Below the pieces are notes generated by a model. That model was not told the DNA's origin and did not search any database. It saw nothing but the letters and a program-made list of their open reading frames with translations. The translations under genes were made by a program, and so were the position numbers. Positions 1 to 5,832 of a stretch of 5,832 nucleotides of DNA are shown here, piece by piece. Numbering within the stretch: the stretch's first letter is position 1; each line of letters starts with the position of its first letter. Source of the DNA: a virus; IMG/VR virus record IMGVR_UViG_3300045988_024238, positions 1-5,832 of that record, one strand, 5' to 3'.

Positions 1-55
1 ATGTTAACTATTTCTATCGTTCCTCCAGTTGTTAGTTTATTTTCCATGTCGTATA
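1..55. repeat. Terminal redundancy, copy 1 of an exact 55-nt direct repeat (identical to 5778..5832). It marks a circular genome of unit length 5777 nt.
   Basis: Read directly: nt 1-55 (atgttaactatttctatcgttcctccagttgttagtttattttccatgtcgtata) recur base for base at 5778-5832. The capsid reading frame is continuous across the join. Confidence 0.95.
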
Positions 56-659
56 ATATGGACCTGTTGGTGAATGTTGTGTTTACGTATGCTGATTTTA
101 CAAGGTAGTAGAAGTCTTTTTCTTGTTTGTTTGCATAGAAATTTTTGAAGATATCCAAGTATGCTAGGCATGGTACTGCATTATTCATTAATATTGTGTC
201 TAAAAACCCGCTTTTCATGCATCTTTGACCCATGTATGCTAGTATACTGCTAGATGAATATGTTAGGTGCGTGCTGTCTGTTATTGTCTGAGTTGTTACT
301 GTTTGTTCAATTTGTGGTAATTTGACCTTGCTCATGTCCAATCCGACATTTAGTGCATTGTTGTGTAGCATTGCGTTGTATAGTCTGAATGGCGCTGTAA
401 AGATGTCTATTTGCATTTTGTAGCTACCGAATAGTGGTCCTACTGTTGGATGCGTCATTACTTTAGTATCAATATCAATGTCGAATGTATCTCCTGGTAG
501 CCCTATTAATTTCATACATGGTACCAGCGTTCCTACACCCATGCTTGACCTCCAGGCATATGATAAATTGTGTGTACTTCTGTTGTAGGTTTTTAGGTCT
601 ATTTTCATGGAATTTCCACCGCCTAGTGTGTTCTTTCCGATTGATTTTGTGATGCTCAT
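1..659 (-). CDS. VP1: Major capsid protein (Microviridae VP1 / F family), 5' portion. ATG at 659. It continues across the circular junction into 5777..4562, giving 1875 nt = 624 aa in total.
   Basis: Hand translation of the - strand from ATG 659 has no stop down to nt 1: MSITKSIGKNTLGGGNSMKIDLKTYNRSTHNLSYAWRSSMGVGTLVPCMKLIGLPGDTFDIDIDTKVMTHPTVGPLFGSYKMQIDIFTAPFRLYN...NRSILYD. It then runs in frame (659-47=612, divisible by 3) into the MENKL... ORF. The segment G.LVP...LPGDTF...F.AP.RL matches the conserved N-terminal jelly-roll region of microvirus VP1 (compare Chlamydia-phage GYLIP..LPGDTF..FFVPLRLIW). The ORF track misses it because the ORF runs off the window edge. Confidence 0.93.
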   Translation of the reverse strand, partial: MSITKSIGKNTLGGGNSMKIDLKTYNRSTHNLSYAWRSSMGVGTLVPCMKLIGLPGDTFDIDIDTKVMTHPTVGPLFGSYKMQIDIFTAPFRLYNAMLHNNALNVGLDMSKVKLPQIEQTVTTQTITDSTHLTYSSSSILAYMGQRCMKSGFLDTILMNNAVPCLAYLDIFKNFYANKQEKDFYYLVKSAYVNTTFTNRSILYDMENKLTTGGTIEIVN

Positions 660-874
660 TTTTCTTCTTGTTTATGTTTTATCTCTTCGTGAATTGTAAA
701 CATTTCTGCTGTCATTGCGAGAATCATGTCCCATTTTGGTGTGTCTATGTACTCTAATGCTTCTGTTTTTGTCTTGAAGTGCTGTTCTGTTGCTAGGTGC
801 TTCCCTACCGTTATGATGAAGTCGTTTTGTTCCTCGTTCGTTGGTCTTACTATAAATAAGTCTTTTATTTCCAT
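656..874 (-). CDS. Hypothetical protein, 72 aa, acidic C-terminus. Stop overlaps the VP1 start (ATGA).
   Basis: ORF on the coding strand. The start lies 1 nt after the stop of the preceding ORF (TAA A ATG) and the stop TGA 658..656 overlaps VP1 ATG 659..657. I recognise no motif. Confidence 0.65.
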   Translation of the reverse strand: MEIKDLFIVRPTNEEQNDFIITVGKHLATEQHFKTKTEALEYIDTPKWDMILAMTAEMFTIHEEIKHKQEEK

Positions 875-875
875 T

Positions 876-1076
876 TTATTCTTTGTTAAAAAGTTTTACG
901 CTTGTGCTGTCCGCTGTTGCTTCTCCGCTTGTTTTGTTCTCGATTGTTTGATTGCTTCCTTTGTTGTTTTTGCTAATTGCTATCATGTTTGTACAACTTA
1001 CTCCCAGCCATGTCAGGATAGCTGATAACACGGCTACGATAATGTTTTTAATTAGTTGTTTTGTTTTGTCACTCAT
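876..1076 (-). CDS. Small predicted lipoprotein, 66 aa precursor (signal peptide plus lipobox, Cys28)
   Basis: MSDKTKQLIKNIIVAVLSAILTWLGVSC|TNMI...: Lys-rich n-region, uncharged hydrophobic h-region, then L-G-V-S-C. This satisfies the classical SPase II rule ([LIVMFWSTAG]2-[LIVMFYSTAGCQ]-[AGS]-C, Cys within residues 15-35, no charged residue in the 6 preceding positions). The mature part is a polar 39-aa peptide. Confidence 0.6.
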   Translation of the reverse strand: MSDKTKQLIKNIIVAVLSAILTWLGVSCTNMIAISKNNKGSNQTIENKTSGEATADSTSVKLFNKE

Positions 1077-1227
1077 TATATATTTTTTTTATAGTTTGTA
1101 TCTCCCAGCTATTTTTTGCAAGTTCCTTTTCCCATTTTGCGATTTTGCTTAAATTGTCCTGCATTACTATTGTTCTTACTTCTCCCGTTCGGGCGTCCAC
1201 GATTTCGCAAACCCAGTTCCACATCAT
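1069..1227 (-). CDS. Hypothetical protein, 52 aa (below ORF-track cutoff)
   Basis: Hand translation: MMWNWVCEIVDARTGEVRTIVMQDNLSKIAKWEKELAKNSWEIQTIKKIYNE*. It fills an otherwise empty gap on the coding strand. Its last 8 nt (ATGAGTGA) overlap the start of the 66-aa ORF. Composition is protein-like with an amphipathic helical C-terminal half. Confidence 0.45.
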   Translation of the reverse strand: MMWNWVCEIVDARTGEVRTIVMQDNLSKIAKWEKELAKNSWEIQTIKKIYNE

Positions 1228-1230
1228 AAC

Positions 1231-1308
1231 TCATCTGTCTTTTAATGATAAAATTATTATTAACATGATAACACTTATTGTGAGTGTTGTTATTAAATAT
1301 CCTTCCAT
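1231..1308 (-). CDS. Possible 25-aa single-pass membrane micropeptide
   Basis: Hand translation: MEGYLITTLTISVIMLIIILSLKDR*. It starts 16 nt after the 82-aa ORF stop and ends 3 nt before the 52-aa ORF start, so it tiles exactly. It is very short and AT-rich, so it could be chance. Confidence 0.25.
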   Translation of the reverse strand: MEGYLITTLTISVIMLIIILSLKDR

Positions 1309-1324
1309 TGTTTCTCGTGAAACA

Positions 1325-1573
1325 TTATTCAAATGCTTTTAATAGTTTTTTTTGTAGTAAACTTTCTACTTCCCTTAGATTTTTTGTGTAGTAAACTTCC
1401 TCGAAGTTATCTATTGTTATTATCCAGCCTTTGTCTGTTTTTGTTGCGTAACCTACATTATCGCCCATTTTTATTATACCGTATTGTTTTTCTCCTGATG
1501 TTTCTAATTGTTTATATCGTCTAAGATGTATCGTTTCTGGCTTGTATGCTTTGAAATAAATATTTCTGTCCAT
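1325..1573 (-). CDS. Hypothetical protein, 82 aa, first gene downstream of the candidate promoter
   Basis: ORF on the coding strand with an A-rich leader and no SD. No recognisable motif. Confidence 0.65.
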   Translation of the reverse strand: MDRNIYFKAYKPETIHLRRYKQLETSGEKQYGIIKMGDNVGYATKTDKGWIITIDNFEEVYYTKNLREVESLLQKKLLKAFE

Positions 1574-1598
1574 AACTTCTATTTTTTTTGATTTGCTT

Positions 1599-1631
1599 CA
1601 AATTTATTGTATTTTTCCCGAAAGTACCAAA
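1599..1631 (-). promoter_or_regulatory. Candidate Bacteroidetes-type promoter: -33 TTTG (1631..1628) and -7 TAAATTTG (1606..1599), 21-nt spacer
   Basis: The + strand reads caaattta at 1599-1606, so the - strand reads TAAATTTG, matching the Bacteroides TAnnTTTG -7 consensus. The + strand reads caaa at 1628-1631, giving TTTG on the - strand. The site lies about 26 nt upstream of ATG 1573. An AT-rich inverted repeat (aaaaatct tt agattttt, 1629..1646) overlaps the -33 element. Confidence 0.4.
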
Positions 1632-1655
1632 AATCTTTAGATTTTTTAAGATAAT

Positions 1656-1698
1656 CGCAACTCTGTTGCGTTACAAGGGTATAGGGACGGTTAGTCCC
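1656..1698. other. Two short GC-rich hairpins: cgcaa-ctctg-ttgcg (1656..1670) and gggac-ggtta-gtccc (1684..1698)
   Basis: Perfect 5-bp stems with 5-nt loops, read directly. The first loop carries the AACTCTGTT 9-mer that recurs in the iteron array. A third hairpin, tcgcac-aga-gtgcga, lies at 1757..1771. Confidence 0.5.
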
Positions 1699-1713
1699 GA
1701 TAGCGTTAGCACC

Positions 1714-1866
1714 TTAGACAACTTCCACCTGCCGTTTGTTTTGTAGTTCGATTCCGTCGCACAGAGTGCGAGCTTCCTCTGCTCTTTTCAACCATGCCCA
1801 CGTAAAATTATCTGATACCACCTGCTGACAACTATCTTGCATGTTATTTGGAAACCCCGCTATCAT
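1714..1866 (-). CDS. Possible 50-aa ORF in the GC-richer island of the control region (below ORF-track cutoff)
   Basis: Hand translation: MIAGFPNNMQDSCQQVVSDNFTWAWLKRAEEARTLCDGIELQNKRQVEVV*. It is bounded upstream by an in-frame TAA and has an alternative start at Met9 (1842). It coincides with a stretch visibly richer in G+C than its very AT-rich flanks. A second TAnnTTTG match (TAGTTTTG, 2035..2028) lies upstream but has no clear -33 TTTG. Confidence 0.35.
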   Translation of the reverse strand: MIAGFPNNMQDSCQQVVSDNFTWAWLKRAEEARTLCDGIELQNKRQVEVV

Positions 1867-1873
1867 TATAATT

Positions 1874-1898
1874 TATATATTTTTCTTTTAAATATATA
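1874..1898. repeat. AT-only inverted repeat (tatatattt - ttctttt - aaatatata), candidate easily melted element
   Basis: 9-bp perfect arms at 1874..1882 and 1890..1898 with a 7-nt spacer. It is embedded in an almost pure A/T stretch (about 1862..1915) next to the iteron array. Confidence 0.5.
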
Positions 1899-1917
1899 TC
1901 TATATGATGATAATAGC

Positions 1918-1993
1918 CTGTTAATATTGTTCATAACTCTGTTAATAGCTTGAAATACAATTATTTAAGCTGTTAATAACTCTGTTCATAACT
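1918..1993 (+). repeat. Iteron array I: five copies of (C/T)TGTT(A/C)ATA(A/G/T)(C/T)
   Basis: GTTAATATT 1920, GTTCATAAC 1929, GTTAATAGC 1941, GTTAATAAC 1972, GTTCATAAC 1984. The 11-mer ataactctgtt is exact at 1933..1943 and 1976..1986. Copy starts are spaced 9, 12, 31 and 12 nt apart, roughly multiples of a helical turn. Confidence 0.6.
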
Positions 1994-2104
1994 TTTTATA
2001 ACTTCTGCCTTTAAAATTTGCTTTTCTCAAAACTATTTATATATAAAAATCAATTCTTAATAATGTGTTAAATTCTCAAATACTTTTCAACAACTTTTCA
2101 ACAT

Positions 2105-2156
2105 ACTTATTAACCGTTTTTGTCCACTTATTAACACAAAAAAAGCGGTTATTAAC
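2105..2156 (+). repeat. Iteron array II: three copies of (C/G)TTATTAAC spaced exactly 21 nt apart
   Basis: acttattaac at 2105..2114 and 2126..2135, and gttattaac at 2148..2156, with starts at 2106, 2127 and 2148. On the viral (-) strand these read GTTAATAA(G/G/C), the same quasi-palindromic GTTAnTAAC family as array I. The third copy sits in the terminator hairpin and contains the rep stop codon. Confidence 0.55.
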
Positions 2157-2160
2157 CGCC
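2138..2160 (-). terminator. Intrinsic (rho-independent-type) terminator at the end of rep
   Basis: The - strand reads gaaaaGGCGGTTAATAACCGCTTTTTTTgtg. The palindrome gcggtta-t-taaccgc (2145..2159) is followed by a T7 tract (the + strand A-run 2138..2144). The rep stop TAA (2154..2152) lies in the loop. The stem is short: 4-5 GC-rich pairs plus AT pairs. Confidence 0.55.
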
Positions 2161-3087
2161 TTTTCGTTGTTCTTTTTGATATTCTTTGAGTTTTTGAAGT
2201 TGTTTTTTATGTCGTTCTCTTTCCCATTCCTCATAGTTTTCGTTGTATAATTCTTTTGCTCGTTCCCGGTAGTAATTCAGGATATTGTTGTATTCTTCTT
2301 CATTGTCTATTGATACCTTTTCGCCGCAAATATATCTGTATCCTCTCTCTTGTTTTTCTATCCAAAGCTTTTCACGTTCTTCTTCTGAATATATTTTCTT
2401 TCTGTAGTATTCAGGTAAAGGTAATTCCTGGCCATTAGGTAGTAGGTAATGTTCGTTTGTTTCTTTGTTTTCCTTGAACTTATTGCGTATGCTGTTAAAA
2501 CTATTTTCATAGCCTTTTCCGATACCTGCGCTGCATAGTATTATTCCTATGTAGTTTCTGTCTATTGGGTTTTCTTTTAGCATGTATTTAACGACATAGT
2601 TTATTGTCTTACTATTGCACATGTTTCCTTGGAATACAAATCCGTATTTCCAATTATTGCGTACAAGTTCGGGATCTCCCCAGCAAATTCCGTGTAGATG
2701 TATTCTCCCTGTGTTTTCTCCTAGTTCTGTGATAAACCAGTGTTTTATTGAATGTTTTGTTTTCTTTCTGATTCTTTCTAGCATTCTTTTGACTGCCAGT
2801 TTACAAATCGAATCTCTGTCTTTTTTTGTGCTGTTTGCCTTAAGTTTTTCGTATTCTTCGTTTGATATTGTTAATGTCCAGAATGTAGCTTTTTCGGGAT
2901 TGTTTTTGATTTCTTCATTTAACCTTATTACCCATTCTCTCTTCCTTGCTTTCCTGCATTCTATGCATCTACCGCATTTTGCTGGTACTAATAATAAACG
3001 CCTATCTTCACAGACAGGCGCTTTAAAGTTATTTTTTTTGTTTGGTTGGTATTTTTTGTTTTGTATGTATTTAGTATATAAGCACAT
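2152..3087 (-). CDS. VP4: Rolling-circle replication initiator (HUH superfamily I Rep, Microviridae VP4 / gene A family), 311 aa from ATG 3087. An alternative upstream ATG at 3123 gives 323 aa.
   Basis: Motif 1 FWTLTI. Motif 2 RIHLHGICW (HUH; His codons at 2700..2692). Motif 3 with two Tyr, NYVVKYMLK (compare phiX174 A, YVAKYVNK). Cys cluster CGRCIECRKARKREW. ATG 3087 gives an MCLYTKY... N-terminus and lies 2 nt after the VP2 stop (TAA AT ATG). Confidence 0.93.
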   Translation of the reverse strand: MCLYTKYIQNKKYQPNKKNNFKAPVCEDRRLLLVPAKCGRCIECRKARKREWVIRLNEEIKNNPEKATFWTLTISNEEYEKLKANSTKKDRDSICKLAVKRMLERIRKKTKHSIKHWFITELGENTGRIHLHGICWGDPELVRNNWKYGFVFQGNMCNSKTINYVVKYMLKENPIDRNYIGIILCSAGIGKGYENSFNSIRNKFKENKETNEHYLLPNGQELPLPEYYRKKIYSEEEREKLWIEKQERGYRYICGEKVSIDNEEEYNNILNYYRERAKELYNENYEEWERERHKKQLQKLKEYQKEQRKGG

Positions 3088-3089
3088 AT

Positions 3090-4136
3090 TTATTTTCGTA
3101 TTGTTTTGCCGAAGCCAGCCCATTTTCCGAATATTGCGCTGATTATTGCTGTTAGTAATTTCCCGTATTTACCTTCTCCTCCTAAATCGTTAATTAGGTC
3201 GCTTAGTGCTTTGTCTTGTTCGAATTGCCATTTCTGTATAGCTGTTTCGTTTTTTGCTTGTTTAGCTTCTTCTACCATTTTGCCGAATACCGCTATTTTA
3301 CCGTTGGCAATTTCATCTAATGCGTCTGATAGTTTTATCGCTACCTCTTTGTCGTTTTTAGCTTCTTGGTATTCTTTTTGTGATATACCGTAATCGGCTA
3401 ACATTCTTTGTAGTTCGTTTTCTTTAAATAATTCTGAAAATCCTTTTGTCCACACGGTTGTGCCGTTTACTTCGCCTTGTAGTGTTATACCTTTTCTTAA
3501 CTCGTTCAGGTAGTTGTTGAATTCTATGTTTTTGCTTTCTTCGTTTGTTTTGTGTATCTGACTTGTGAGTGATTCTATTCTTTTTTCTGATTCTTTTACC
3601 TCTTGTTTATTTTTGGCTGTTTCAGACTCTATATTTTCTGTGTCAACCGTCATCAGTTTTGCTGCTTCTGCATTTGCTTTTGCCGCTTGTGCTTCTGTTA
3701 GTTGTTTTTGCGCTTCCATGGTTTGCCATTGTATTGCCATTCCTACCCCTGTTGATGCTGGCAGACCTACACCTGCTGCACTTCCTGCTCCTGCTGCGCT
3801 TCCTCCACTACCACCATTTCCGTATAGTAATGCTGGGTTTAGTCCTGCATTTTTTAGGTGTTCAACTTGGTTTTCATAGTTTGTGTAATCCCACATTTCT
3901 TTCGATAATTCTGTGCTGTATTGCGCTTGTTCCTTGTTGTATTTAGACTGTAAAGCCATGTATTCAAGTTGCCTTTGATGTTCTCTTTCTTCGGCTTCTC
4001 TTGCTTTCTTTTCTTTTCTTGAGCCTAAGCCTAATAGTGAGCCTATTCCGCTTAATGCTCCTGTGACTAGTCCTCCTACACCTCCTGTCAGACCTCCTAG
4101 TGCTGCGCTTCCTAATGCTGTACCTATATTTCCCAT
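3090..4136 (-). CDS. VP2: DNA pilot / minor capsid protein (Microviridae VP2 / H-like), 348 aa
   Basis: Gly/Ala/Leu-rich hydrophobic N-terminus (GTALGSAALGGLTGGVGGLVTGALSGIGSLLGLG). Conserved VEHLKNAGLNPALLYG motif followed by a second Gly-rich tract. Long charged, coiled-coil-like region (AQKQLTEAQAAKANAEAAK...). Sits between the capsid module and rep, as in gokusho/alpaviruses. Confidence 0.85.
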   Translation of the reverse strand: MGNIGTALGSAALGGLTGGVGGLVTGALSGIGSLLGLGSRKEKKAREAEEREHQRQLEYMALQSKYNKEQAQYSTELSKEMWDYTNYENQVEHLKNAGLNPALLYGNGGSGGSAAGAGSAAGVGLPASTGVGMAIQWQTMEAQKQLTEAQAAKANAEAAKLMTVDTENIESETAKNKQEVKESEKRIESLTSQIHKTNEESKNIEFNNYLNELRKGITLQGEVNGTTVWTKGFSELFKENELQRMLADYGISQKEYQEAKNDKEVAIKLSDALDEIANGKIAVFGKMVEEAKQAKNETAIQKWQFEQDKALSDLINDLGGEGKYGKLLTAIISAIFGKWAGFGKTIRK

Positions 4137-4144
4137 TTTTCGTA

Positions 4145-4258
4145 GCTTTTTTTAAAAGCGTTAGTTACTTAGTTCATATATAAGAGCACACACGTACTAT
4201 CGTGTGATTCTTTAGAAGTAAGGGACTTAGATAAGTCCCTTATGCTCATACGTGCTCT
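4145..4258. other. Structured intergenic region: three hairpins plus an enclosing helix
   Basis: gctttt-ttt-aaaagc at 4145..4159. cacacg-tactat-cgtgtg at 4189..4206. A 24-nt perfect palindrome, taagggactta-ga-taagtccctta, at 4219..4242. agagcac (4183..4189) is complementary to gtgctct (4252..4258). No T-tract follows on the coding strand, so it is not a canonical terminator. Confidence 0.6.
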
Positions 4259-4262
4259 GCCG

Positions 4263-4559
4263 TTATTCTGCTGGTTTTGTTTCTTCAGGTTTTGTTTCTT
4301 CAGGTTTTTTTATTCCTTTACTCTTAGCGATTTTGCTTGCGTTTGCTAAGTCCATTGCAGATTGTGCTATTTCCCATCTATCTGTTCTGATGTCGTATTC
4401 TGGTCTTACTCCATCCTTTTTCTCTGTATAGATAATTGGCGCACCGTCTGTAATTGGTTCGTTATTTTCTATTAGTTTTGCACATTTTTTTTCAATGCTT
4501 TGTCCTTCACTTGGTTCTATGTAACCTATGAATGTTGGCTTGTATTCTGTTTTTTTCAT
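4263..4559 (-). CDS. Small protein, 98 aa from ATG 4559 (the track ORF starts at 4631 and overlaps VP1). Function uncertain; its position suggests a scaffold-type (VP3-like) protein.
   Basis: MKKTEYKPTFIGYIEPSEGQ...PIIYTEKKDGVRPEYDIRTDRWEIAQSAMDLAN...KPEETKPEETKPAE. ATG 4559 lies 2 nt after the VP1 stop (TAA CA ATG), the same junction design as VP2/VP4. The scaffold idea rests only on position and size. Confidence 0.7.
   Translation of the reverse strand: MKKTEYKPTFIGYIEPSEGQSIEKKCAKLIENNEPITDGAPIIYTEKKDGVRPEYDIRTDRWEIAQSAMDLANASKIAKSKGIKKPEETKPEETKPAE
4273..4308. repeat. 15-bp tandem repeat (ggttttgtttcttca, 2.4 copies) encoding (KPEET)2KP at the C-terminus of the 98-aa protein
   Basis: Exact copies at 4273..4287 and 4288..4302, then a partial ggtttt at 4303..4308. 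Confidence 0.85.
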
Positions 4560-4561
4560 TG

Positions 4562-5832
4562 TTATAAGTTTGGTATTTGTTTTGCACTCATTACTCTTCT
4601 CGATTCTATTCCGAATCCTATTTGTACCCAAAAATTTTGGCTCTCTGTTGTTGTTTCAGCGAATATATAATTGTATTTGCCTGGGTCTATGTAACTTGTG
4701 TTGTCTATTTTATTGCTTGTGAAGTCTCCATTTTCAGGTTCGAATATTCTGTTTAACACCATGAATGCTTCATTTCCGTTTTCTGCGAATGTTCCGTATG
4801 TTTTGTTAAAGTTTGTCATATAGTTTATCCAGGCAACACTCTTTCCATATGAAACTTCTCCGCTTACCCAACCTGCTTCCCAGACTGTCAATAAATCCTG
4901 ATAGCCTATTCCGTCTAATGCTGGTTTATGTAAGTCGTTAAGTGTGATTAGTTCATTATCCCAGTCATTTCCCTGGCAATAGTCTACTCTTGGTGTTATT
5001 GATGCTATTCCGATAATATAACATGGTTCATTTACTTTAATATGTAGTTTACCACCTTTTTTTTGAGTGTTGATTCCTCTACCTGCTAGTGTTCCTAATG
5101 GCTCATCACCGCTTGCTGAATTTGATACTATTTCCTGAAATTCTATTTCAGTCGATAATCCTCCTTCGTACATTGGTGTCTCTGTATGCATGTTCCAGCT
5201 AGATGTATATACAGTTTCTACCCAATCTTGGTAAGTTCCTCCGCTGACTGCAATTCTGTTTAGCATATCATATACTTTTTTCGATAGGTTTAGCTGGTCT
5301 ATTGTGAATTTGTCACCCGTTGTACTGATAGCTGTTATTGCATTAATTCCGTTGTCCCCGTCTATCCATTCAGTATTTATCCAATTATTAAATATGTCAG
5401 ATTGATATGTCTTTAGGATTAGCCCGCATCCTGCTTCCTTTAAGTTTAATATTCCGTTTGCTTCTCCTAATACGTCTTGGAAATATTTGTTTGTAGTTCT
5501 ATCAATCTTGAATCGAGTTTCTCCTGCTTTTAATATGTTTTCTCTCAGCTCGTCTAGTGATGTAAGTCCTGCCTTCTGTATATACGAGTTGTTTTTGTAT
5601 CTTGCTTGCTCTCCAAATTTCCAATATTGCCCTCTCTTGAATGTTAGTAGTACATTGCTCCCCTTTTGCGTTGCCGTCCAGTATTTGTTAATTTGTGTGC
5701 TGTTGAGCCATTTACTTGTGTTTCCTTCTGTTTCAGTTCCATATACTTCACCTGACGAGTTCCATTGTTCTAGTGTCATGTTAACTATTTCTATCGTTCC
5801 TCCAGTTGTTAGTTTATTTTCCATGTCGTATA
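4562..5832 (-). CDS. VP1: Major capsid protein VP1, 3' portion (C-terminal 420 aa plus the duplicated junction). Stop TAA at 4564..4562.
   Basis: 420-aa ORF in the track. Its apparent Met (5824) is internal, equivalent to nt 47 of the first repeat copy. It is the longest ORF in the genome, and 624 aa agrees with Alpavirinae-like capsids, which are larger than gokushovirus VP1. Confidence 0.93.
   Translation of the reverse strand, partial: YDMENKLTTGGTIEIVNMTLEQWNSSGEVYGTETEGNTSKWLNSTQINKYWTATQKGSNVLLTFKRGQYWKFGEQARYKNNSYIQKAGLTSLDELRENILKAGETRFKIDRTTNKYFQDVLGEANGILNLKEAGCGLILKTYQSDIFNNWINTEWIDGDNGINAITAISTTGDKFTIDQLNLSKKVYDMLNRIAVSGGTYQDWVETVYTSSWNMHTETPMYEGGLSTEIEFQEIVSNSASGDEPLGTLAGRGINTQKKGGKLHIKVNEPCYIIGIASITPRVDYCQGNDWDNELITLNDLHKPALDGIGYQDLLTVWEAGWVSGEVSYGKSVAWINYMTNFNKTYGTFAENGNEAFMVLNRIFEPENGDFTSNKIDNTSYIDPGKYNYIFAETTTESQNFWVQIGFGIESRRVMSAKQIPNL
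5778..5832. repeat. Terminal redundancy, copy 2 (identical to 1..55)
   Basis: Exact 55/55 identity with the window start. A 55-nt overlap is typical of de Bruijn assembly of a circular molecule rather than a biological terminal repeat. Confidence 0.95.

Follow-up and report, generated by a model that had tools for sequence, protein, structure and literature searches.

Colicin lysis proteins release cell contents by quasi-lysis, permeabilizing the envelope without a muralytic enzyme. These proteins (Lysis_col, PF02402) are very small prolipoproteins whose mature peptide is short, polar and uncharged and lacks an enzymatic fold. Small lipoproteins are also found in phages: T5 Llp and Cor (NCBIfam NF047972) are predicted to face the periplasm, and the Rz1-type o-spanins combine a mature part of ~40 residues with a connection to lysis. 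phiX174 E, the small membrane-targeted protein of a small-genome phage, is an uncleaved transmembrane (TM) protein with its functional residues in the TM helix, and its gene is embedded in another. No homologue of E or of other accessory proteins is recognizable in Alpavirinae-type microviruses (PMC3091885), and an acquired M15 peptidase has been proposed as the endolysin in a minority of genomes (PMC3394797). The window analyzed here is the whole 5,832-nucleotide (nt) stretch, positions 1 to 5,832 of IMG/VR virus record IMGVR_UViG_3300045988_024238, and the gene in question is a 66-codon open reading frame (ORF) on its minus strand that is predicted to encode a lipoprotein. The best overall explanation of the data, given a probability of about 0.5, is that a lipoprotein facing the periplasm, probably glycosylated, is the lysis effector of this phage.

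The colicin release lipoproteins share their size class, the polar character of the mature peptide and the lack of an enzymatic fold with the family described here and may be its closest analogue in mode of action. They differ in being plasmid-borne proteins of Enterobacteria without a glycosylation sequon, whereas the family is phage-borne and belongs to Bacteroidota, and PF02402 gave no Pfam match to the window protein at E ≤ 0.1. The resemblance to Llp and Cor extends to molecule class and predicted orientation, but the family has no second Cys for an Llp-type disulfide. Like phiX174 E, the protein is small, targeted to the membrane and encoded by a small-genome phage, and it would lyse the cell without a muralytic enzyme and make up for the missing E. 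Unlike E, it is the product of a free-standing gene, has a lipobox, and is conserved at the lipobox and in the polar periplasmic tail. An earlier sequence-only reading of the window had already pointed to a microvirus-encoded small lipoprotein, a class that it did not consider established for Microviridae, and a search of the accessible literature library found no paper describing a microvirus lipoprotein.

Predicted lipoprotein architecture of the 66-residue protein

The ORF translates to MSDKTKQLIKNIIVAVLSAILTWLGVSCTNMIAISKNNKGSNQTIENKTSGEATADSTSVKLFNKE, and the precursor divides at Cys28 into a predicted signal peptide (MSDKTKQLIKNIIVAVLSAILTWLGVS) and a mature peptide (CTNMIAISKNNKGSNQTIENKTSGEATADSTSVKLFNKE). 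The n-region is rich in Lys (K4, K6, K10), which places a K/R within the first 7 residues as PROSITE rule PS51257 demands, and a hydrophobic core of ~16–17 residues lies ahead of Cys28. The other elements of PS51257 are present as well: there is no D/E/R/K in the 6 residues before −4, the lipobox reads LGVSC, and the Cys at 28 falls in the permitted range of 15 to 35. The background rate of the rule is low, with 46 of 6,208 other ORFs of 40–120 amino acids (aa) in six frames of related genomes fitting it (0.7%), and 81 of 126 family hits do so. Of the remaining family hits, most have a Cys at −3 and a few come from truncated or fused ORFs. A strict lipoprotein regular expression fails most family members on charge after the last K/R or on Q at −2.

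The mature peptide is dominated by polar residues (N6, T5, S5, K5) and has a net charge of +1. Acidic, export-type residues had been reported to be absent after the Cys, and the first acidic residue is indeed at +19. AlphaFold2, supplied with a 64-sequence alignment, returned a single helix at residues 3–37 followed by a disordered tail; the model has a mean predicted local distance difference test score (pLDDT) of 63, with values <50 for residues 41–66, and a model of this kind does not distinguish a signal peptide from an anchor. A PDB sequence search with the family protein produced only noise at E > 0.2. The C-terminus was considered as an outer-membrane-protein β-signal and rejected; the spacing of its hydrophobic residues does not fit.

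Conservation of the family

The protein has 259 homologues at E ≤ 0.01, almost all from 5–6 kb contigs, and the synteny of the lipoprotein locus is kept in 14 close genomes; the ORF did not arise by chance. Distant relatives of 60–90 aa came from a profile search of 1.8 billion representative proteins, and a second profile was built from them. The family profile recovers 971 proteins at E ≤ 1e-3, and homologues overall lie nearly all on 5–7 kb microvirus contigs. Three long multi-repeat proteins matched by the profile (P0125, P0126 and P0142) were discarded as spurious repeat matches. The signal part has a Nei-Gojobori ratio of nonsynonymous to synonymous rates (dN/dS) of 0.29, and the mature part one of 0.22. 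With the proportion of synonymous differences (pS) at about 0.45, the sequences have diverged enough for these ratios to reflect purifying selection. The 66-codon ORF is therefore a real, translated and constrained gene, and it is shared by hundreds of Bacteroides-type gut microviruses.

The best 120 homologues are invariant at Cys28, T22-W23-L24-G25, S27, T29-N30 and D56-S57. In a 22-member alignment spanning 28–61% identity, the Cys and the D-S of the tail are the sole invariant columns. Among 97 unique family sequences from fetched genomes, the Cys is present in 97 of 97, position −1 is S (83), A (9) or G (5), and position +2 is T (93) or V (4). Conservation of the Cys28 lipobox had been proposed as a check on the prediction, and the Cys with a small −1 residue is found in every homologue, including those only 28–40% identical. 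The h-region changes freely in sequence across the 97 proteins and retains its length and hydrophobicity. The mature peptide has three parts. An amphipathic N-terminal segment of alternating polar and apolar residues, C-T-x-[SM]-[LM]-[ST]-[IV]-x-K-N-N, is conserved; the middle is a variable linker rich in Asn, Ser, Thr and Gln; and the C-terminal segment [VA]-D-S-T-x-[IV]-x-[ILVF], commonly with N before the last position, is again conserved. These motifs are shared by lineages with capsid proteins that are only 21–28% identical.

The lipoprotein-type signal is conserved across the family, and the fixation of the Cys and a small −1 residue while the h-region drifts argues for a lipoprotein and not a plain TM anchor. 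We infer lipidation of Cys28 from this pattern. The competing description is an uncleaved, N-in/C-out, single-pass inner-membrane protein akin to phiX174 E, a holin or a pinholin. The hydrophobic stretch of the window copy does run past the Cys (I12–I34, 23 residues), the AlphaFold2 helix is continuous from 3 to 37, and one homologue is publicly auto-annotated as 'SPP1 phage holin [Microviridae sp.]'. The Pfam matches to Holin_SPP1 and Phage_holin_10 reach only E 0.05–0.07, however, far under the 27-bit cut-offs, and an endolysin never occurs alongside the protein, hence it is no canonical holin. An invariant Cys preceded by only G, A or S has no rationale in a plain TM helix, the T-M-S-L-S-V-S-K-N-N that follows the Cys in most subfamilies alternates polar and apolar residues in a manner unlike a TM segment, and conservation resides in the polar tail and its glycosylation sequon instead of the helix. 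The uncleaved form is therefore improbable, and the 66-residue protein very probably has the architecture of a lipoprotein.

A second small lipoprotein-like family of 59–72 aa, LP2 (MKEEIKQFLKENW...FEGCGSTWKISGN...NDSI..NDTI), occurs in six genomes that lack the main family (L081, L082, L089, L090, L093 and L094; for example L089:5544-5762). LP2 has a conserved Cys after G/S/A plus a second conserved Cys, and it is distantly related to the main family, with which hhalign aligns it on the same Cys and the strand-like segment that follows (probability 81%, E 1e-5).

Lipoprotein identity does not run parallel to the rest of the genome. The window lipoprotein is 91% identical to those of L003 and L004, whose capsid, pilot and replication initiator (Rep) proteins are only 40–53% identical, and 59–65% identical to those of L005–L014, whose capsid and Rep are mostly 75–87% identical (lower in L008–L010 and L012). 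Two lipoprotein allele types appear to be exchanged by recombination independently of the genome backbone.

An O-glycosylation sequon in the mature tail

The invariant D-S-T of the tail, which the sequence-only reading overlooked, matches the O-glycosylation sequon of Bacteroidota. This sequon is D(S/T)(A/I/L/V/M/T) and is nearly always occupied; its glycan is assembled on undecaprenyl phosphate, and the transfer takes place in the periplasm (PMC8550257, PMC12871550). Its use is confined to non-cytoplasmic proteins (PMC12871550). The sequon lies at one fixed position in 90 of 91 unique mature peptides, where composition-preserving shuffles predict 15.4. In the few peptides that deviate at the third position, the residue (A, I, V or S) is still one reported to be tolerated there; the strict motif allows A/I/L/V/M/T, and S is also listed in a review. 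The LP2 proteins have DSI, DTI or DTL in 6 of 6 cases, with one or two sequons each. The microvirus protein thus has, by sequence match, a fixed O-glycosylation sequon of its host phylum, and Ser57 is probably O-glycosylated in a Bacteroidota host. The fixed sequon supports an exported tail, a Bacteroidota host, and the functional importance of either the glycosylation or contact with the machinery that performs it.

Distribution of the lipoprotein and the M15 peptidase

The occurrence of the two genes was compared in 199 loci comprising the window, the genomes found through the lipoprotein, 160 genomes sampled by capsid similarity (two capsid groups) and phiHBP1. Lipoprotein and M15 genes were called by iterated hidden Markov model (HMM) scans of all ORFs, and M15 was confirmed by Pfam. 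The lipoprotein is present in 123 loci, Peptidase_M15_3 in 40 (Pfam E 1e-11 to 1e-18), and both in 0. A motif scan that does not depend on ORF calls picked up the lipoprotein signature at 117 of the 122 lipoprotein loci and at none of the 40 M15 loci. phiHBP1, a cultivated microvirus of B. fragilis, has the M15 gene and lacks the lipoprotein. The either/or distribution of lipoprotein and M15 holds.

Near-complete, capsid-sampled genomes of the window's lineage (n = 74) contain the lipoprotein in 65 cases, LP2 in 6, M15 in 2 and neither in 1; exactly one of the three genes is present in 73 of the 74. The corresponding phiHBP1/BMV-type genomes (n = 70) contain the lipoprotein in 17, LP2 in 0, M15 in 36 and neither in 17. 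M15 falls in 3 separate clades of the capsid tree. None of the 21 capsid clusters formed at 60% identity is mixed and clusters at 50% identity mix both states, which indicates that the switch occurs between fairly close relatives. In L097, the M15 gene is immediately followed by the homologue of the 72-aa ORF and then the capsid gene, and it thereby occupies the slot that holds the lipoprotein in the window, L099 and L043.

The largest M15 clade has the gene order 57-aa ORF, 29-aa TM ORF, M15, Rep, and its lipoprotein-bearing sisters have the order lipoprotein, 57-aa homologue, Rep. The 29-aa single-TM ORF (MKSETKSKIWSAIIAAAVSLLTSIAQIFS) precedes the 102-aa M15 peptidase in 26 of 26 clade genomes and ends 1–4 nt upstream of it. 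The pair was seen among L128–L154, L174, L178, L181 and L185 (for example L130:5482-5571 followed by 5575-5883), and the start of the 29-aa ORF lies, in a different frame, within the end of the 57-aa gene before it. The two genes are likely to be a holin-endolysin pair, and the holin-like partner supports M15 as a lysis enzyme in a cassette. Matches of the 29-aa ORF to the 'smalltalk' and DUF6486 models were also sought, and there were none.

The sequence-only reading had recognized no lysis gene in the genome, and the window indeed contains no recognizable peptidoglycan hydrolase or known lysis family outside the lipoprotein gene; the recurrent accessory ORFs of lipoprotein-bearing genomes likewise have no match to a hydrolase or lysis family. 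The near-universal one-of-three pattern, together with M15 in the lipoprotein slot, points to alternative solutions to the same essential task, which for M15 is most plausibly the breakdown of the cell wall at release. Since no hydrolase is ever found alongside the lipoprotein, the protein would itself be the effector, in contrast to a spanin-like helper or a holin.

These data bear on superinfection exclusion, the role that the sequence-only reading favored. In the envelope of infected or lysogenic cells, a lipoprotein of this kind would mask a receptor or otherwise keep related microviruses from adsorbing or getting their DNA into the cell, as T5 Llp and Cor do with FhuA-dependent phages. 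The molecule class is the same, the family occurs in integrated Bacteroides prophages, one of 22 members has a marginal match to the NCBIfam Cor model (E 0.026), and the shuffling of lipoprotein alleles between capsid backbones is frequent for accessory host-interaction genes. Exclusion gives no reason for mutual exclusivity with an endolysin or for replacement in the same slot, however, and the presence of exactly one alternative in 73 of 74 genomes of the window's lineage has the appearance of an essential function. Exclusion factors would be expected to follow receptor specificity, whereas the tail motifs persist between lineages whose capsids share only 21–28% identity. Translational coupling ties the gene to capsid or Rep, both lytic genes; it is not a separate moron, the Cor match is not significant, and the PADLOC defence models returned nothing meaningful. 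Mutual exclusivity and slot replacement favor lysis over exclusion, which is rather unlikely.

The same reading had offered a lysis-accessory factor as its second choice. The lysis part of that idea is strengthened by the distribution; the accessory part is not, because the protein never co-occurs with M15 and is better regarded as the effector. An accessory would be a spanin- or disruptin-like outer-membrane lipoprotein that completes lysis begun by a host autolysin or an unrecognized phage factor. The protein has the size of an o-spanin and lacks a Lol-avoidance-type or surface-export signal, which makes a site in the inner leaflet of the outer membrane plausible. The gene is missing precisely where an endolysin exists, the opposite of what an accessory predicts. 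No inner-membrane spanin partner or endolysin is present in any lipoprotein-bearing genome, no ORF of the window resembles an i-spanin, and the family lacks the Pro-rich composition and the extra, intermolecular Cys typical of Rz1. An accessory role is consequently improbable, and the reading of the lipoprotein as the effector itself is the one pursued below.

A candidate lysis effector

Comparative genomics gives the lipoprotein close to an even chance (0.45–0.5) of being the phage's lysis effector, and it is the best candidate so far for host lysis by Bacteroides-type gut microviruses. In the proposed mechanism, the prolipoprotein and the capsid protein would be expressed from one tightly coupled transcription unit. 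Sec would export the prolipoprotein, Cys28 would receive the lipid, and signal peptidase II would remove the signal peptide. The product would be a largely disordered 39-residue peptide tethered to the membrane leaflet that faces the Bacteroidota periplasm. There it would stand in for the M15 peptidase cassette, with its holin-like component, of the sister microviruses and would act as a single-gene, lipoprotein-type lysis protein similar in design to the colicin release lipoproteins. Alternatively, it could act as a 'protein antibiotic' that blocks an envelope-synthesis step exposed to the periplasm. The wider proposal that the family is the missing lysis gene of Bacteroidota microviruses and defines a new single-gene type, lipid-anchored, O-glycosylated and acting from the periplasmic side, unlike the known 'protein antibiotics' E, A2 and LysM, is tentative and has less than an even chance. 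A specific version is a long shot: the sequon itself would be the mechanism, engaging or jamming undecaprenyl-phosphate-dependent O-glycosylation or another periplasmic envelope-synthesis step and starving peptidoglycan synthesis of its carrier lipid.

Several observations weigh against a lysis effector. The protein has no homology to any characterized lysis protein (Pfam, including Lysis_col), and a 39-residue peptide without an enzymatic fold offers no clue to a target. The AlphaFold2 helix resembles an uncleaved anchor. The M15 clades number only three, which makes a phylogeny-aware probability modest, ~0.04 on the assumption that the lipoprotein is present in ~65% of clades. Neither gene occurs in two further clades of complete genomes, so the lipoprotein is not the sole alternative to M15 and the logic of one lysis gene per genome is incomplete. 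Finally, weaker relatives are found in bacterial contigs L199–L202 (for example L200:617-826), which is not an obvious lysis context.

The genomes with neither gene are complete 6.2–6.9 kb BMV-type genomes (L155–L165, L168, L170, L172, L176, L179 and L189). No conserved small TM ORF was found in these clades, and an embedded TM ORF overlapping the pilot gene was dropped as a candidate because it occurs in only 4 of 18 genomes. The relatives in L199–L202 (P0155 type) have an LTSSC lipobox and a DSA sequon and are encoded between DUF4248 and HU-HIG DNA-binding genes; a primase-like gene is near, and no phage or microvirus genes are in the vicinity. An IMG/VR search with the P0155-type bacterial relative gave no matches.

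The small number of M15 clades, the two clades with neither gene and the relatives in non-phage bacterial contexts would also suit another envelope function, such as remodeling of the host surface or its glycosylation, or lysogenic conversion, with the M15 anticorrelation as a phylogenetic accident. The cataloguing of the family without a function is compatible with this. The M15 gene in the lipoprotein slot of L097 and the near-universal one-of-three pattern in the window's lineage speak against an accident, as does the strong purifying selection on a gene that is kept in genomes of <6 kb, where space is tight. Such a function is quite unlikely, and the lysis effector remains the preferred explanation.

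Genome organization

The window is a complete circular microvirus genome of 5,777 nt with a 55-nt terminal redundancy (1–55 = 5778–5832), a GC content of 36% and all of its genes on the minus strand (Table 1). A 580-nt AT-rich spacer is followed by a chain of small ORFs in the order 82 aa, 52 aa, the 66-aa lipoprotein, 72 aa and the capsid gene. One nt separates the 66-aa ORF from the 72-aa ORF, and the latter overlaps the capsid start (ATGA). The 72-aa ORF, with the conserved core LF.IRPTNEEQNDFIITVGKHLATE..F.T..EA..Y...P.WD, is the most constant capsid-gene neighbor in the window's lineage and is always located between the lipoprotein (or M15) and the capsid gene.

Table 1. Features of the window with coordinates, strand and supporting information.
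Feature	Position	Strand	Evidence or remark
Prolipoprotein gene, complete, 66 aa, ATG start, stop codon included	876..1076	(-)	translation check, homologues, dN/dS
Predicted signal peptide, residues 1-27: n-region MSDKTKQLIK, h-region N11-V26, S27 at -1	996..1076	(-)	
Lipobox L24-G25-V26-S27-C28; C28 = predicted lipidated first mature residue	993..1007	(-)	family conservation
Mature polar peptide C28-E66, 39 aa	879..995	(-)	stop codon 876-878
D56-S57-T58, Bacteroidota O-glycosylation sequon	903..911	(-)	shuffle test
Upstream 52-aa ORF	1069..1227	(-)	stop overlaps lipoprotein start by 8 nt (ATGAGTGA); only some relatives have it
Downstream 72-aa ORF	656..874	(-)	phrog_3627, no assigned function
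Major capsid protein, 624 aa	659..1 joined to 5777..4562 (split across ends)	(-)	phrog_514
VP3-like ORF, 98 aa	4263-4559	(-)	
DNA pilot protein	3090-4136	(-)	
Replication initiator (Rep)	2152-3123	(-)	PF23343
Bacteroides-type promoter-like motif TTTG-N21-TAAATTTG	1599..1631	(-)	26 nt upstream of first gene of small-gene chain

The promoter-like motif corresponds to the Bacteroides promoter consensus. One match was observed and 0.86 are expected by chance, which makes the motif suggestive by position only and not significant by count. A Shine-Dalgarno sequence is present in 0 of the 9 window genes, and all nine have A-rich leaders. A-rich leaders without a Shine-Dalgarno sequence are how translation typically starts in Bacteroidota. 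Scans of the window for Rfam families and tRNAs gave no matches. The closest GenBank records, at 76–78% nucleotide identity, are unverified microviruses from pig and mink faeces, in which the target ORF is unannotated or labeled 'similar to hypothetical protein'.

A GC-rich block at about 1650–1800 (50% GC versus 21–34% around it) interrupts the long spacer that separates Rep from the chain of small genes. Its nucleotides recur in relatives as pseudo-ORFs in shifting frames (MSHGSTKLSKVLTLSGLRAPIPLVRN...), and the block looks like a conserved non-coding element. Local hairpins are present (GGGAC-N5-GTCCC and GCAAC-N3-GTTGC), and as single-stranded DNA the block is no more stable than shuffled sequences (z −0.29). 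An origin or a dif/att-like site is a possible role for it.

A 25–33-codon ORF with a strong TM segment (MEGYLITTLTISVIMLIIILSLKDR) at 1231–1332 (-), between the 82-aa and 52-aa ORFs, was set aside as a lysis candidate; it is absent from relatives and is probably not a gene. Two starts are available to Rep: one at 3123, which lies within the end of the pilot gene, and one 12 codons further on, at MCLYTKYI (3087). Most relatives begin at MCLYTKYI, and the shorter form may be the real one. A +1-frame ORF inside the lipoprotein gene (MVRSKLY... in relatives) has only 12 codons in the window and was dismissed as a by-product of the conserved TWLGVSCTNM codons.

Family assignment, prophages and host

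The family is already catalogued and is uncharacterized. Microviral relatives score 44–56 bits against the two models that describe it, with maxima of 50.6 bits against NCBIfam NF033879 'smalltalk protein' (cut-off 24.7) and 56 bits against Pfam DUF6486 (PF20096; cut-off 22.7). Both models cover 29–31 positions, the n-region and h-region, and end at the lipobox Cys. The window protein itself is below both cut-offs, with 19.4 bits for smalltalk and no DUF6486 match at E ≤ 1. Profile searches seeded with the window protein recover P0134, P0167, L088-type and P0311-type proteins, which score 30–56 bits against both models, and profile homology thus places the window protein in the DUF6486/'smalltalk' family. 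The entries as retrieved state no function, lipoprotein nature, glycosylation sequon or role in microvirus lysis. The conserved microvirus lipoprotein, its host O-glycosylation sequon and its mutual exclusivity with the M15 endolysin appear to be new.

The 67-aa P0311 is the NCBI 'smalltalk protein [Bacteroides thetaiotaomicron]' and is encoded within a microvirus prophage in GCA_052880575.1. Its insertion site lies downstream of gyrA and a TPR gene, and the gene order is 76-aa ORF, lipoprotein, Rep, capsid and the rest. Microvirus prophages of B. thetaiotaomicron and of gut metagenome contigs share this gyrA/TPR junction (L203/L204, about 7700–13700; IMG/VR contigs L015 and L017), and the lipoprotein stop overlaps or abuts the Rep start in these prophages. 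Searches of GTDB genomes with the lipoprotein and capsid profiles yielded no confirmed prophage of the window's lineage, and an 8-kb contig with a homologue proved to be a concatemer. The suggestion that the window's lineage exists as proviruses therefore did not hold for that lineage in GTDB; it does apply to another lineage with the same family in B. thetaiotaomicron.

A host in the phylum Bacteroidota is supported. For the window's own lineage the assignment is putative and derives from the family shared with Bacteroides prophages, the sequon, the leader composition and the non-significant promoter motif.

Implications

Few phages of the human gut are as abundant as microviruses, and their exit route outside phiX174 is not known. 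A conserved gene of 200 nt that alternates with M15 is a concrete lysis candidate that is cheap to test, and the prophage copy in B. thetaiotaomicron and the cultivable B. fragilis phiHBP1 (M15 type) are available for comparison. The analysis also gives the DUF6486/'smalltalk' family a hypothesis at the level of function, and the sequon in a phage protein is a useful host-prediction marker for uncultured microviruses. If the protein does turn out to lyse the host, its target would reveal a point at which the Bacteroidota envelope is newly found to be vulnerable, in the way that MraY and MurJ were confirmed through phage lysis proteins.

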